Made by a program: the position numbers and the translations under genes. DNA of 5,861 bases from a virus (taxonomy: Duplodnaviria; Heunggongvirae; Uroviricota; Caudoviricetes). The notes below the pieces were generated by a model. That model was given only the letters and a program-made list of their open reading frames with translations. It had not been told where the DNA came from and did no database searches. The stretch's first letter is position 1; the number at the start of each line of letters is the position of its first letter. Location: the IMG/VR virus record IMGVR_UViG_2534681663_000011; one strand, 5' to 3'. Positions 1 through 5,861 of the stretch are shown one piece after another.

Positions 1-279
1 AATCTGGAGGCCACAGGGCTGTATCAGGTGCCGTTGTCAGCGGCGCAGCCGGGCGATGTGCTGCTGTGCTGTTTTGGTTCATCGGTGCCGAATCATGCCG
101 CCATTTACTGTGGTGACAGCGAGCTGCTGCACCATATTCCTGAACAACTGAGCAAACGAGAGAGGTACACCGACAAATGGCAGCGACGCACACACTCCCT
201 CTGGCGTCACCGGGCATGGCACGCATCTGCCTTTACGGGGATTTACAACGATTTGGCCGCCGCATCGACCTTCGAGTGA
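1..279 (+). CDS. K: Tail tip assembly protein K, C-terminal part (5' end lies outside the window)
   Basis: Frame 1 is open from position 1 to the TGA at 277-279. Translation (...PLSAAQPGDVLLCCFGSSVPNHAAIYCGDSELLHHIPEQLSKRERYTDKWQRRTHSLWRHRAWHASAFTGIYNDLAAASTFE) closely matches the C-terminus of lambda gpK as I recall it, with conserved Cys/His residues consistent with an NlpC/P60-type domain. Its 3' end overlaps the start of I out of frame, as in lambda. Confidence 0.85.
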   Translation, partial: NLEATGLYQVPLSAAQPGDVLLCCFGSSVPNHAAIYCGDSELLHHIPEQLSKRERYTDKWQRRTHSLWRHRAWHASAFTGIYNDLAAASTFE

Positions 280-818
280 AAACGGGGTCCGAAGCCATCC
301 GGGCGCTGGCCATGCAGATCCCGGCATTTCGTCAGAAACTGAGCGACGGCTGGTACCAGGTACGCATTGCCGGGCGTGATGCAGGTGAAACCGAATTGTC
401 TGCCCGTCTTAATGAGCCGCTGGAAAATGGTGCCGTGATCCATATCGTGCCGCGTCTGGCAGGAGCCAAAAGTGGCGGTGTGTTTCAGGCTGTGCTGGGG
501 GCGGCTGTTATGGCGGTTGCTATATGGATGCCGGGGGTAGGAATTATGGCGAGTAATCTGCTGTTTTCTCTCGGTGCCAGTATGACGCTTGGCGGTGTTG
601 CACAGATGCTGGCCCCTAAACCCAAAACCCCCCGCACACAGACAACGGATAACGGCAAACAGAATACCTATTTTTCTTCACTGGATAACATGGTTGCCCA
701 GGGCAATGTTCTGCCGGTTCTGTACGGTGAAATGCGCGTGGGGTCACGCGTGGTTTCTCAGGAGATCAGCACGGCAGACGAAGGGGATGGTGGTCAGGTT
801 GTGGTGATTGGTCGCTGA
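177..818 (+). CDS. I: Tail assembly protein I
   Basis: 213-aa ORF. The N-terminus (MAATHTLPLASPGMARICLYGDLQRFGRRIDLRVKTG...) and C-terminus (...KQNTYFSSLDNMVAQGNVLPVLYGEMRVGSRVVSQEISTADEGDGGQVVVIGR) match lambda gpI as I recall it; the central Gly/Ala-rich hydrophobic stretch differs. The start lies 103 nt inside K in another frame, and the gap to J is 60 nt, the same geometry as lambda. Confidence 0.9.
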   Translation: MAATHTLPLASPGMARICLYGDLQRFGRRIDLRVKTGSEAIRALAMQIPAFRQKLSDGWYQVRIAGRDAGETELSARLNEPLENGAVIHIVPRLAGAKSGGVFQAVLGAAVMAVAIWMPGVGIMASNLLFSLGASMTLGGVAQMLAPKPKTPRTQTTDNGKQNTYFSSLDNMVAQGNVLPVLYGEMRVGSRVVSQEISTADEGDGGQVVVIGR

Positions 819-878: not shown

Positions 879-1766
879 ATGGGTAAAGGCAGCAGTAAGG
901 GGCATACCCCGCGCGAAGCGAAGGACAACCTGAAGTCCACGCAGCTGCTGAGTGTGATCGATGCCATCAGCGAAGGGCCGGTTGAAGGTCCGGTGGATGG
1001 ATTAAAAAGCGTGCTGCTGAACAGTACGCCGGTGCTGGACAGTGAGGGGAATACCAACATCTCCGGTGTCACGGTGGTGTTCCGGGCCGGTGAGCAGGAG
1101 CAGACACCGCCGGAGGGATTTGAATCCTCCGGCTCCGAGACGGTGCTGGGTACGGAAGTGAAATACGACACGCCGATCACCCGGACCATCACGTCGGCAA
1201 ACATCGACCGTCTGCGCTTTACCTTCGGTGTGCAGGCACTGGTGGAAACCACCTCAAAGGGGGACCGGAATCCGTCGGAAGTCCGCCTGCTGGTTCAGAT
1301 ACAGCGTAATGGTGGCTGGGTGACGGAAAAAGACATCACCATTAAAGGCAAAACCACCTCGCAGTATCTGGCATCGGTGGTGGTGGGTAACCTGCCGCCG
1401 CGCCCGTTCAATATCCGGATGCGCAGGATGACGCCGGACAGCACCACAGACCAGCTGCAGAACAAAACGCTCTGGTCGTCATACACCGAAATCATCGATG
1501 TGAAACAGTGCTACCCGAACACGGCACTGGTCGGCGTACAGGTGGATTCGGAGCAGTTCGGCAGCCAGCAGGTGAGCCGTAATTATCATCTGCGCGGGCG
1601 TATTCTGCAGGTGCCGTCGAACTATAACCCGCAGACTCGGCAATACAGCGGTATCTGGGACGGAACGTTTAAGCCAGCATACAGCAACAACATGGCCTGG
1701 TGTCTGTGGGATATGCTGACCCATCCGCGCTACGGCATGGGGAAACGTCTTGGTGCGCGGATGTGA
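879..1766 (+). CDS. J: J N-terminal fragment (295 aa), ended by a premature TGA
   Basis: The ORF translation matches the lambda gpJ N-terminus over its whole length up to ...WCLWDMLTHPRYGMGKRLGA. The same frame reads J-like sequence (KWALYVIGQYCDQSVPDGFGGTEPRITC) immediately after the stop, which indicates a local frame-neutral indel created the stop. Confidence 0.8.
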   Translation: MGKGSSKGHTPREAKDNLKSTQLLSVIDAISEGPVEGPVDGLKSVLLNSTPVLDSEGNTNISGVTVVFRAGEQEQTPPEGFESSGSETVLGTEVKYDTPITRTITSANIDRLRFTFGVQALVETTSKGDRNPSEVRLLVQIQRNGGWVTEKDITIKGKTTSQYLASVVVGNLPPRPFNIRMRRMTPDSTTDQLQNKTLWSSYTEIIDVKQCYPNTALVGVQVDSEQFGSQQVSRNYHLRGRILQVPSNYNPQTRQYSGIWDGTFKPAYSNNMAWCLWDMLTHPRYGMGKRLGARM

Positions 1767-2065
1767 AAATGGGCGCTGTATGTCATCGGCCAGTACTGCG
1801 ACCAGTCGGTGCCGGACGGCTTTGGCGGCACGGAGCCGCGCATCACCTGTAAGCTACCTGACCACACACGAAGGCGTGGGATGTGCTCAGTGATTTCTGC
1901 TCGGCGATGCGCTGTATGCCGGTATGGAACGGGCAGACGCTGAGTTCGTGCAGGACCGACCATCGATAAGGTGTGGACCTATAACCGCAGTAATGTGGTG
2001 ATGCCGGATGATGGGCCCTTCCGCTACAGCTTCAGCGCCCTGAAGACCGCCATAATGCCGTTGAG

Positions 2066-2425
2066 GTGAACTGGATTGACCCGGACAACGGCTGGGAGAC
2101 GGCGACAGAGCTTGTTGAAGATACGCAGGCCATTGCCCGTTACGGTCGTAACGTCACGAAGATGGATGCCTTTGGCTGTACCAGCCGGGGGCAGGCGCAC
2201 CGCGCCGGGCTGTGGCTGATTAAAACGGAACTGCTGGAAACGCAGACCGTGGACTTCAGCGTGGGTGCCGAAGGGCTTCGCCATGTACCGGGCGATGTCA
2301 TTGAAATCTGCGATGATGACTATGCCGGTATCAGCACCGGTGGTCGCGTGCTGGCGGTGAACAGCCAGACCCGGACGCTGACGCTCGACCGTGAAATCAC
2401 GCTGCCATCTCCGGCACCACGCTGA
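2066..2425 (+). CDS. J: J internal fragment, in a different frame from the N-terminal fragment
   Basis: The ORF uses a GTG start as listed in the track. Its translation matches the middle of gpJ (about residues 385-500 of lambda J). The J-like reading in this frame begins about 24 nt upstream at roughly 2042 (EDRHNAVEV). It ends at the TGA at 2423-2425 after ...ITLPSPAPR, where J similarity continues in another frame. Confidence 0.7.
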   Translation: MNWIDPDNGWETATELVEDTQAIARYGRNVTKMDAFGCTSRGQAHRAGLWLIKTELLETQTVDFSVGAEGLRHVPGDVIEICDDDYAGISTGGRVLAVNSQTRTLTLDREITLPSPAPR

Positions 2426-2712
2426 TAAGCCTGGTTGACGGAGGGATCCGGTCAGCGTGGAGGTTCAGTCCGTCACCGACGGCGTGAAGGTGAAAGTGAG
2501 CCGGTTCCTGACGGCGTTGCGAATACAGCGTTGGGGGCTGAAGCTGCCGACGTGCGCCAGCGCCTGTTCCGCTGGTGAGTATCCGTGAGAACGACGACGG
2601 CACGTATGCCATCACGCCGTGCAGCATGTACCGGAAAAAGAGCCATCGTGGATAACGGGGCGCACTTTGACGGCGACCAGAGCGGCACGGTAATGGTGTC
2701 ACGCCGCCAGCG

Positions 2713-4344
2713 GTGCAGCACCTGACCGCGAAGTCACCGCAGACAGCGGGGAATACAGGTGCTGGCCGCTGGGACACGCCGAAGGTGGTGAAGGGCGTGA
2801 GCTTCCTGCTTCGCCTGACCGTGGCAGCGGATGACGGCAGTGAGCGGCTGGTCAGCACGGCCCGGACGACGGAAACCACATACCGCTTCACGCAACTGGC
2901 GCGGGAACTACAGGCTGACAGTCCGGGCGGTAAATGCGTGGGGCAGCAGGGCGATCCGGCATCGGTATCGTTCCGGATTGCCGCACCGGCAGCGCCGTCG
3001 CGGATTGAGCTGACGCCGGGCTATTTTCAGATAACCGCCACGCCGCATCTTGCGGTTTATGATCCGACGGTACAATTTGAGTTCTGGTTCTCGGAAACGC
3101 GGATTACCGATATCAGGCAGGTTGAAACCACAGCCCGCTATCTTGGCACGGGGCTGTACTGGATAGCCGCCAGTATCAATATCAGGCCGGGCCATGATTA
3201 TTACTTTTATATCCGCAGTGTGAACACCGTTGGCAAATCGGCATTCGTGGAGGCTGTCGGTCAGCCGAGTGATGATGCATCAGGCTATCTGGATTTTTTC
3301 AAAGGCGAGATAGGGAAAACCCATCTGGCTCAGGAGCTGTGGACGCAGATTGATAACGGTCAGCTTGCGCCTGACCTGACTGAAATCAGGACGTCCATAA
3401 CGGATGTCAGCAATGAAATAACACAGACCGTCAATAAGAAACTGGAAGACCAGAGTGCAGCGATCCAGCAGATACAGAAGGTTCAGGTTGATACAAATAA
3501 TAACCTGAACAGCATGTGGGCAGTGAAGCTGCAGCAGATGCAGGACGGACGCCTTTATATTGCGGGTATCGGTGCCGGTATTGAGAACACCCCTGACGGC
3601 ATGCAGAGTCAGGTGCTGCTGGCAGCAGACAGGATTGCGATGATTAATCCTGCGAATGGCAACACAAAGCCGATGTTTGTTGGTCAGGGCGATCAGATAT
3701 TCATGAATGAAGTGTTCCTGAAACGCTTGACGGCCCCCACCATTACCAGCGGCGGTAATCCTCCGGCATTTTCCCTGACATCAGACGGGAGACTGACGGC
3801 GAAAAATGCGGATATCAGTGGCAGTGTGAATGCGAACTCAGGAACGCTCAACAATGTCACGATTAACCAGAACTGTACGATTAAGGGCATGCTGGAGGCG
3901 ACCCAGGTCAGAGGAGATTTCGTTAAAGCTGTATCAAAAGCCTTCCCGAAAAAAGTCGGTACGTGGGGTAACACGGAAACACCAAACGGTACGGTTACAG
4001 TCACCATCAGCGATGATCATAACTTTGACCGCCAGATTATTATTCCGCCCATTATTTTTAACGGTATAGCGTATGACGATCCGGGGAGCGGAAATAACCC
4101 AGGAGGCACGCGATACACGGGTTATGGTTTTGAAGTTCGCAAAAACGGCGTATTAATCGCATCCAGAGAAACTAAAGGGGCCATTCCCGGTAGTTACAGT
4201 GCAGTTATTGATATGCCGAGTGGCAGGGGAAGCGTCACTCTGGAGTTTAAGATTTTCCAGAAAGGCAATCAGGGGGCAGGCAATATCACCGACTGTACGG
4301 TGATTGTGACCAAAAAAGCCGCTTCCGGCATCAGTATTCGTTGA
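2713..4344 (+). CDS. J: J C-terminal fragment (543 aa) including the distal, presumed receptor-binding region
   Basis: Long ORF in frame 1 ending at the TGA at 4342-4344. It contains conserved gpJ blocks ([126 protein letters not shown]). The first 12 or so codons are out of the true J frame. A compensating frameshift pair lies near 2900-2945. Confidence 0.8.
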
Positions 4345-4363
4345 AATATTTATAACCCCAATA

Positions 4364-4392
4364 AAGGGCGTCAGGAATGACGCCTTTTTTAT
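4364..4392 (+). terminator. Rho-independent terminator between J and lom
   Basis: Stem GGCGTCA (4367-4373), loop GGAA, stem TGACGCC (4378-4384), followed by TTTTTT (4385-4390). An AAA tract precedes the stem and can extend the pairing. It lies 20 nt after the J stop. Confidence 0.7.
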
Positions 4393-4414
4393 TGCAGAAA
4401 AGCGAGAGGTAATT

Positions 4415-5014
4415 ATGCGTAAAGTTTGTGTAGCAATTTTGTCCGCAGCCATTTGTCTGGCCGTATCCGGTGCGCCTGCATGGGCGTCTGAACATCAGTC
4501 CACGCTGAGCGCGGGGTATCTTCATGCCTCGACGAACGTCCCCGGCAGCGATGATCTGAACGGGATTAACGTGAAATACCGTTATGAGTTTACGGACACA
4601 CTGGGGCTGGTGACGTCATTCAGCTATGCAGGAGACAAGAATCGCCAGCTGACCCGTTACAGCGATACCCGCTGGCATGAAGATTCCGTTCGTAACCGCT
4701 GGTTCAGCGTAATGGCGGGGCCGTCTGTGCGCGTGAATGAATGGTTCAGCGCGTATGCGATGGCGGGTGTAGCTTACAGCCGTGTGTCGACTTTCTCCGG
4801 GAATTATCTTCGCGTAACTGACAACAAGGGGAAAAAGCACGATGTGCTGACCGGAAGTGATGACGGTCGCCACAGCAACACGTCTCTGGCGTGGGGGGCT
4901 GGCGTGCAGTTTAACCCGACCGAATCCGTGGCCATTGATATTGCTTATGAAGGTTCCGGCAGTGGTGACTGGCGCACTGACGGTTTCATCGTGGGTGTCG
5001 GTTATAAATTCTGA
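4415..5014 (+). CDS. lom: Lom-like outer membrane protein (Ail/Lom/PagC family beta-barrel)
   Basis: 199-aa ORF with a GAGAGG ribosome-binding site 6-11 nt upstream. The N-terminus is a signal peptide (MRKVCVAILSAAICLAVSGAPAWA). The C-terminus (AYEGSGSGDWRTDGFIVGVGYKF) and internal blocks (GINVKYRYE, SVMAGP, SAYAMAGVA) match lambda Lom as I recall it, and the terminal Phe is typical of outer-membrane beta-barrels. Its position between J and stf is as in lambda. Confidence 0.88.
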   Translation: MRKVCVAILSAAICLAVSGAPAWASEHQSTLSAGYLHASTNVPGSDDLNGINVKYRYEFTDTLGLVTSFSYAGDKNRQLTRYSDTRWHEDSVRNRWFSVMAGPSVRVNEWFSAYAMAGVAYSRVSTFSGNYLRVTDNKGKKHDVLTGSDDGRHSNTSLAWGAGVQFNPTESVAIDIAYEGSGSGDWRTDGFIVGVGYKF

Positions 5015-5040
5015 TTAGCCAGGTAACACAGTGTTATGAC

Positions 5041-5068
5041 AGCCCGCCGGTTCAGGCGGGCTTTTTTG
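5041..5068 (+). terminator. Rho-independent terminator downstream of lom
   Basis: Stem AGCCCGCC (5041-5048), loop GGTTCA, stem GGCGGGCT (5055-5062), running into TTTTTTG (5062-5068). It lies 27 nt after the lom stop and ends 10 nt before the stf start codon. Confidence 0.7.
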
Positions 5069-5078
5069 TGGGGTGAAT

Positions 5079-5861
5079 ATGGCAGTAAAGATTTCAGGTG
5101 TACTGAAAGACGGCACAGGAAAACCGGTACAGAACTGCACAATCCAGCTGAAAGCAAAACGTAACAGCACCACGGTGGTGGTGAACACGCTGGCCTCAGA
5201 AAATCCGGATGAAGCCGGGCGTTACAGCATGGACGTTGAGTACGGTCAGTACAGCGTTATTCTGTTGGTGGAAGGATTCCCGCCGTCACATGCCGGGACC
5301 ATCACCGTGTATGAAGATTCCCGACCCGGTACGCTGAATGATTTTCTCGGTGCCATGACGGAGGATGATGCCCGTCCGGAGGCACTGCGCCGTTTTGAAC
5401 TGATGGTGGAAGAGGTGGCGCGTAACGCGTCCGCGGTGGCACAGAACACGGCAGCCGCGAAGAAGTCAGCCAGCGATGCCGGCACATCAGCCCGTGAGGC
5501 GGCAACCCATGCGACTGATGCTGCAGGCTCAGCACGCGCAGCCAGCACGTCAGCCGGACAGGCCGCTTCGTCGGCTCAGTCAGCGTCTTCCAGCGCAGGA
5601 ACGGCATCAACAAAGGCCACTGAAGCGGAGAAAAGTGCTGCCGCTGCAGAGTCCTCAAAAAGCGCGGCAGCTACCAGTGCCGGTGCGGCGAAAACGTCAG
5701 AAACGAATGCGGCAGCGTCACAACAATCAGCAGCCACTTCTGCATCCGCCGCGACCACGAAGGCGTCAGAAGCAGCCACCTCAGCCCGGGATGCGGCGGC
5801 CTCAAAAGAGGCAGCGAAATCATCAGAAACGAACGCATCATCAAGCGCCAGTAGTGCCGCT
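5079..5861 (+). CDS. stf: Side tail fiber protein, N-terminal part (3' end lies outside the window)
   Basis: The ATG at 5079 opens a frame that runs without a stop to the window end (261 codons). It was not in the ORF track because it has no stop inside the window. The translation (MAVKISGVLKDGTGKPVQNCTIQLKAKRNSTTVVVNTLASENPDEAGRYSMDVEYGQYSVI...TITVYEDS...MVEEVARNA...) matches the lambda Stf N-terminus as I recall it, followed by the characteristic Ala/Ser/Thr-rich repeat region. Confidence 0.85.
   Translation, partial: MAVKISGVLKDGTGKPVQNCTIQLKAKRNSTTVVVNTLASENPDEAGRYSMDVEYGQYSVILLVEGFPPSHAGTITVYEDSRPGTLNDFLGAMTEDDARPEALRRFELMVEEVARNASAVAQNTAAAKKSASDAGTSAREAATHATDAAGSARAASTSAGQAASSAQSASSSAGTASTKATEAEKSAAAAESSKSAAATSAGAAKTSETNAAASQQSAATSASAATTKASEAATSARDAAASKEAAKSSETNASSSASSAA

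Follow-up and report, generated by a model that had tools for sequence, protein, structure and literature searches.

The window (the whole stretch of DNA that was analysed, 5,861 nucleotides long) covers the tail-tip end of a lambdoid phage or prophage and carries the 3' end of K, the genes I, J and lom, and the 5' part of stf (Table 1). The gene lom, a textbook prophage cargo gene, lies between J and stf. A spacer of 70 nt between J and lom had been given in an earlier description made from the letters of the DNA (here called the sequence-only reading), and the spacer at 4345-4414 delimited by the J stop codon (4342-4344) and the lom start (4415) agrees with this length. The GC content is 0.47 at the 3' end of J, 0.51-0.57 in lom and 0.55-0.64 in stf. 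A repeat search around lom returned short chance matches, the hairpin of terminator 1 (hairpin 1) excepted, and an Rfam scan of the whole window gave no match at the gathering score. A sub-threshold match to isrG (RF01390), a Salmonella Hfq-binding sRNA, was seen on the minus strand at 5659-5861, antisense to stf (28 bits against a gathering score of 100, E = 1e-4, truncated at the window end).

Table 1. Coordinates of the genes and features of the window.
Feature	Coordinates	Strand	Remarks
K (3' end)	Left part of window		ORF list, profile search
I	177-818		Profile search, ORF list
J, tail-tip gene	879-4344	+	Stop codon 4342-4344
J 3' part, receptor-binding end	2713-4344	+	PHROG 2148/31 tail fibre J; J annotated in relatives
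Terminator 1	4363-4390	+	Hairpin 4367-4384, T6 4385-4390
lom cassette	4392-5064	+	673 bp segment missing from lom-less lambdoid phages
Shine-Dalgarno GAGAGGT	4404-4410	+	4 nt upstream of ATG
lom coding sequence	4415-5014	+	199 aa plus stop
Lambda-like block	4935-5129	+	87-100% DNA identity; last ~80 nt of lom, terminator 2, stf start
Terminator 2, lom's own	5041-5068	+	Hairpin 5041-5062, T6 5063-5068
stf 5' part, side tail fibre	5079-5861	+	Leaves window; PHROG 3279/1419 tail fibre; stf/stfR annotated in relatives

About 27 deletion events, which together remove about 32 bases and all lie within 1757-2944, divide J into three ORFs. Every event is a loss, none lies in a homopolymer, most are in GC-rich contexts, and outside this stretch the window is clean. 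None of the deletions was found in any comparator or in any of the 5,426 complete E. coli genomes, in which the corresponding stretch is always 1332-1333 nt long where the window has 1301 (best identity 96.8%). Because the deletions span no more than 1.2 kb, consist of losses alone and are unique to the window, an artefact is favoured over decay; they probably mark a low-quality stretch of sequence, and the alternative is that they may belong to a truly dead tail gene.

The family, the locus and the arrangement of lom are already known and present in public annotation. Region 4300-5100 was matched by 212 phage records and is 99.4-99.6% identical in PhiR34_1, PhiR68_2, Kati and ev243. A match to the window was found in 5,026 of the 5,426 complete E. 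coli genomes, and 3000-5861 occurs at equal length and 99.3% identity in many E. coli genomes. In lambdoid and Stx prophages (mEp460, PhiR34_1, Kati, ev243 and Stx2a phages) the DNA is 96-99.6% identical, from the spacer through both terminators, and the product is named 'Ail/Lom family outer membrane beta-barrel protein' in RefSeq; the window differs from these by a few private substitutions such as N130, which was found only in the window among 66 alleles. The allele occurs in thousands of E. coli genome sequences and is of little importance by itself. The additions made here are modest, namely cassette ends at a terminator T-tract, the lack of a promoter and an internal mosaic junction; the cassette ends and the missing promoter sharpen the question of whether Lom acts for the lysogen, through adhesion or serum resistance, or for the phage late in infection, through the block to adsorption suggested by an over-expression study of 2025.

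The lom product was assigned to Pfam family PF06316 (Ail_Lom) with 403.2 bits against a cut-off of 23, residues 1-199 being aligned to profile positions 1-199, and matched PHROG 108 'Lom' with E = 9e-110. A signal peptide was predicted at residues 1-24 (4415-4486), with cleavage between AWA and S after residue 24. The C-terminus (GVGYKF) ends in an aromatic residue, the beta-signal, and a Sec signal peptide combined with a beta-signal would suit insertion into the outer membrane. A first AF2 model based on 34 close homologues had a pLDDT of 56 and was not used for mapping; the model used was obtained from a 67-sequence alignment including 50%-cluster representatives and had a pLDDT of 91.6. 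It consists of a signal-peptide helix (residues 2-17), a low-confidence linker (19-25) and eight strands (29-40, 47-58, 63-81, 86-106, 111-135, 141-166, 172-181 and 188-198). The closest solved chain was lambda Lom (9wso_C, E = 1e-50, end-to-end alignment), followed by OmpX and Ail. In Foldseek searches Ail (3qra) was matched with E = 8e-15 and a target-normalised TM score of 0.84 and OmpX (1qj9) with a TM score of 0.85; sequence E-values for the group of Ail, OmpX and Rck/PagC were 1e-17 to 1e-19. On the basis of the model, Lom is predicted to be a secreted eight-stranded outer-membrane beta-barrel with the Ail/Lom/OmpX fold. PDB entry 9wso contains two Lom chains (chain C, lambda Lom, 206 aa, in the 2026 PDB sequence file); J is not among the partner chains, and an accompanying paper was not found in a literature search.

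The fold, the C-terminal aromatic strand and the long protruding strands are shared with Ail (Yersinia), OmpX (E. coli) and Rck/PagC (Salmonella) at about 30% identity; Lom of the window differs from these proteins in having much longer loops 2 and 3 and in being phage-borne. Scores of 115.1 bits for the Rck/PagC equivalog (NCBIfam NF011777, cut-off 258) and of 99.4 bits for the OmpX equivalog (NCBIfam NF006917, cut-off 176) lie under the respective cut-offs, so that Lom is placed as a member of the family that is an orthologue of neither.

The protein of the window (199 aa) is 46% identical to lambda Lom (NP_040601; 206 aa). Both belong to the eight-stranded barrel family, both are encoded between J and stf behind a homologous leader with GAGAGGT, and they share all of the last 28 residues. 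The mature N-terminus reads SEHQSTLSAGY here and EGGHGTFTVGY in lambda, loops 2 and 3 are largely different, and loop 1 is shorter in the window, the eight extra residues of lambda Lom all being located there. A matching C-terminal strand together with a divergent N-terminus and divergent internal segments had been noticed in the sequence-only reading, and the alignment bears out both observations.

For the mapping of the differences, each strand contributed the 10 residues closest to its periplasmic end (12 in the last strand, 188-199) to the membrane set, and the remainder of each hairpin was taken as extracellular. With loop and strand boundaries set by this fixed rule on the modelled strands rather than by a membrane-positioning calculation, identity to lambda Lom is 68% (56/82) in the membrane segments and 29% (22/76) in the extracellular segments (Fisher p = 8e-7); without the residues from 172 onward the values are 60 and 23% (p = 3e-5). 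Divergence concentrated in transmembrane strands had been named beforehand as the outcome that would speak against variable surface loops, and the divergence was instead found to be mainly extracellular. On the modelled barrel, the membrane-proximal strands thus appear to be kept relative to lambda Lom, with the loops and protruding strand tips differing most.

Part of the similarity has another origin. The lambda-like block of Table 1, which covers the final ~80 nt of the gene, its terminator and the beginning of stf, is nearly identical in lambda, and lom upstream of about 4935 has a sliding DNA identity to lambda of 23-77%, except for 4560-4604 (80-90%). This pattern marks a mosaic (recombination) junction inside lom at about 4935. 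The last two strands and loop 4 are identical at least partly because the DNA is shared, and conservation of a barrel strand is not the sole cause. Within the 199-aa class, 66 DNA alleles from 82 loci gave pN/pS values of 0.15 for membrane codons and 0.14 for extracellular codons, which indicate purifying selection within the allele class; no loop-specific diversifying selection was found among these 66 alleles.

The stem of terminator 1 (GGCGUCA/UGACGCC) comprises 7 bp, five of them GC, with the loop GGAA, and is extendable to 4363-4388; the minimum free energy of folding is -17.6 kcal/mol (z = -4.2). In the terminator scan it was listed for the minus strand only, since on the plus strand the extended A-U stem consumed the T run and the scan missed it; a hairpin of this type was called on the plus strand in locus L213. 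Across 12 variants all 84 of 84 pair cells are paired. In two of the pairs both partners have changed (from G-C to A-U and from C-G to U-A), wobble intermediates are present, and the conservation of pairing was equalled by one of 500 shuffles. Terminator 2 has an 8 bp stem (seven GC), a 6 nt loop and T6. It is near-invariant over 83 loci and for this reason uninformative on the evolution of pairing; its hairpin is kept in the lambda version. Both terminators are annotated as rho-independent in the mEp460 record. Each has a GC-rich stem with a short loop and, directly behind it, a U-tract, and both hairpins are predicted on these grounds to be intrinsic terminators, as had been proposed for the flanks of lom. 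It is very unlikely that they are recombination boundaries or RNA-stabilising stem-loops that resemble terminators without working as such. Both cassette ends and the mosaic boundary of J do fall at T-tracts, as would be expected of recombination boundaries, but T6 follows each GC-rich stem directly on the coding strand, a clean T run is missing from the minus strand of both hairpins, and the pairing of hairpin 1 has been kept via compensatory changes.

Three lambdoid phages without lom, ev207, Lambda_4C10 (4C10) and ev017, keep just one terminator in the J-stf spacer, which is about 58-60 nt long in these phages; the window is 673 bp longer. The lom-less spacer consists of the J stop, the hairpin, TTTTTTATT and then TGTGGAGTGAATATG-stf, and alignment to the three phages identified this junction as the left flank of the window fused to its right flank (1462-1503 in locus L007, 1477-1518 in loci L008 and L009). 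The additional segment, the ends of which are ambiguous by 2-3 T each, contains a 22 nt leader with the Shine-Dalgarno sequence, lom and most of terminator 2. The exact empty junction was found in 86 IMG/VR contigs, from which the lom-less state is seen to be common, and the occupied left junction in more than 120 IMG/VR contigs (a lower bound). Since the upstream hairpin stands directly before stf in the lom-less phages, terminator 1 is the resident J terminator, part of the J-stf backbone and not of the cargo. The mobile unit comprises the Shine-Dalgarno sequence, lom and its own terminator, placed directly after the T-tract of the resident terminator. That lom is cargo, as had been proposed, is shown by its presence in some phages and absence from others between fixed ends, a polymorphism that may stem from either insertion or deletion.

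Lambda lom occupies the same pair of junctions and has a homologous leader, so that two allele classes share one site; the sequence of the upstream hairpin differs in lambda. The 30 nt after hairpin 1 showed no variation in the 82 non-lambda loci (of 83 compared), and among these 82 loci hairpin 1 and the end of J vary together, which places a mosaic boundary at the T-tract. The same Lom allele (at least 95% identical) follows at least four types of J C-terminus that are 49-67% identical to one another. No coupling of the Lom allele with the receptor-binding type of J was found, which argues against a J-specific mechanism.

Two records contain more than one lom. In L213 (IMG/VR contig 2671180353_000009), positions 4235-6460 hold J, a hairpin, lom, a copy of the J C-terminus (241 aa), a hairpin, a second lom, a terminator and stf, in this order; the tandem is either a duplicated module of the J end plus lom or an assembly join of two prophages. 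In the PhiR49_1 record Lom is listed twice.

The duplex of GAGGU in the lom Shine-Dalgarno sequence with the 3' end of 16S rRNA has an energy of -7.1 kcal/mol, within the top 8% of window positions, and is stronger than those of the J site (-5.6 kcal/mol) and the stf site (-6.0 kcal/mol). The Shine-Dalgarno sequence is invariant across the 82 non-lambda loci and kept in lambda, and the strong ribosome-binding site attributed to lom was confirmed by the duplex energy. A consensus scan, which overlooks weak, unusual or non-sigma-70 promoters, found no promoter-like site on the plus strand of the whole window. A position weight matrix (PWM) scan of 3900-4420 reached a maximum of 7.7 bits, which equals the window background, and yielded no sigma-70 promoter; with the same matrix, the frequencies of which are approximate, lacUV5 scored 14.4 bits and the activator-dependent PRM 8.1 bits. 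These scans agree with the earlier statement that the spacer contains no convincing sigma-70 promoter. Of the two hexamers quoted with that statement, TATAAC was correctly placed at 4351-4356, and TTGAAA, given as 4342-4347, lies at 4341-4346, where it overlaps the J stop codon; the gap between them is 4 nt and not 3 nt. The distance from terminator 1 to the lom ATG is 22 nt, and this is too little space for a sigma-70 promoter. In lambda a -10-like TATTAT/TATAAA lies directly 3' of the hairpin; at the same position the window has TATTGC, in which the critical last T is lost. Nothing usable on a mapped lom transcription start was found in the literature.

The classic moron in the sense of Juhala and Hendrix, as defined for HK97 gene 15, consists of a promoter, a gene and a terminator inserted in a late operon (PMC3594210). 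Morons of this type and the lom cassette have in common an extra gene between otherwise adjacent tail genes and an own terminator, and their likeness in prophage expression rests on the lambda homologue. The cassette differs in that it has no detectable promoter, starts 22 nt before the ATG behind a resident terminator and has a base composition that is not clearly foreign. As no promoter was found, the lom unit is not a complete classic moron. In the sequence-only reading the layout had been called that of a classic moron; the extra gene and its own terminator stand, and the upstream terminator as a flank of the cargo does not.

The locus is probably best described as a common 199-aa lambdoid lom allele in a promoterless cassette behind the J terminator, expressed by late read-through and acting through a change of the surface. 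A transcript starting in J must cross terminator 1 before it reaches lom. By analogy with lambda, most lom transcription would belong to the late operon, where RNA polymerase modified by Q and resistant to terminators would proceed through both hairpins to stf; in the lysogen the level of lom would be low and would stem from terminator leakage or from a weak unmapped start. Lom would insert into the host outer membrane and alter the surface that is presented. The altered surface may then confer adhesion, as for lambda Lom, serum resistance, as for its relatives, or reduced adsorption of lambda-like phages; the link of this Lom to adhesion and serum resistance is borrowed from relatives.

The functional data are all from lambda Lom, which is 46% identical to the protein of the window. 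Expression of lambda lom rises strongly late in infection (PMC12366544, 2025). When over-expressed, lambda Lom blocks lambda-vir and not T7 and reduces the adsorption of lambda-like phages, and Lom at the prophage level does not protect lysogens from lambda-vir (PMC12366544). The over-expression result fits the promoterless layout and may by analogy apply to the present allele. Adhesion to buccal cells for lambda Lom, and adhesion, invasion and serum resistance for Ail/Rck, are mentioned in passages of PMC7067206 and PMC3594210 that refer to earlier work. Transcription of lambda lom in lysogens has also been reported (PMC7067206, PMC1151598); it implies that some start site exists and counts against the promoterless view.

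In one rival explanation lom is a self-contained classic moron, with its own constitutive promoter of weak or non-consensus type in the spacer or the end of J, and with prophage expression that aids the host through adhesion or serum resistance. Lambda lom is among the few genes transcribed in lysogens (references above), the -10-like hexamer of lambda directly follows its hairpin, and expression of phi24B lom, a lom in a different genomic context, was reported to be independent of induction (PMC3342100). We consider this explanation unlikely for the window, however, given that the plus strand holds no promoter-like site, the best PWM score is at background and the hexamer reads TATTGC; any start upstream of 4390 would face a canonical terminator, with 22 nt left beyond it, and the scores for Rck and OmpX fall short of the equivalog cut-offs. 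That Lom serves the phage instead seems somewhat unlikely. Lom would here be made late and lower the adsorption of sibling lambda-like phages to infected or lysing cells, and the divergence of its loops would track phage or receptor specificity. The promoterless late-operon layout fits late expression, and over-expressed lambda Lom combines a strong lambda-specific defence that leaves T7 unaffected with a late rise (PMC12366544). Against this, one Lom allele accompanies at least four J receptor-binding ends (49-67% identical) and does not co-vary with J specificity, pN/pS shows no loop excess (0.14 extracellular, 0.15 membrane), lysogens gain no protection from lambda-vir by prophage-level Lom (PMC12366544), and the defence data come from a protein 46% identical to this allele.

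A more specific proposal, which we regard as quite unlikely, is that the cassette is promoterless by design, near-silent in the lysogen and switched on late by Q, so that Lom coats dying cells and debris against re-adsorption and its loops define exclusion classes independent of J type. It is highly improbable that the locus belongs to a decayed prophage in which lom is a leftover without a current role. The roughly 32 single-base deletions at 1757-2944 do break the frame of J, but lom is intact, many genomes match positions 3000-5861 at 99.3% identity, the allele class has a pN/pS of 0.15, and deletions that are all losses within 1.2 kb and occur in no other genome favour an artefact. The preferred reading is that of a promoterless cassette transcribed by late read-through from behind the J terminator.

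The small RNA 24B_1 next to phi24B lom (PMC4426718) was considered as a candidate and rejected: it belongs to a short-tailed phage context, and its region is stated to be absent from lambda. In E. coli ET82 (NZ_CP101005.1), the closest full-length genome match to the window, the annotation marks each of K, I, J and lom as frameshifted, a pattern more suggestive of an error-prone assembly than of a decayed prophage. The G6 run of lom at 4888-4893 is G5 in the ET82 and mEp332 records, and lom is thereby frameshifted; it is annotated as a frameshifted pseudogene in ET82, and a 603 nt 'hypothetical protein' is called in mEp332. G5 in these two records is probably a homopolymer sequencing error, although the difference in length recurs.
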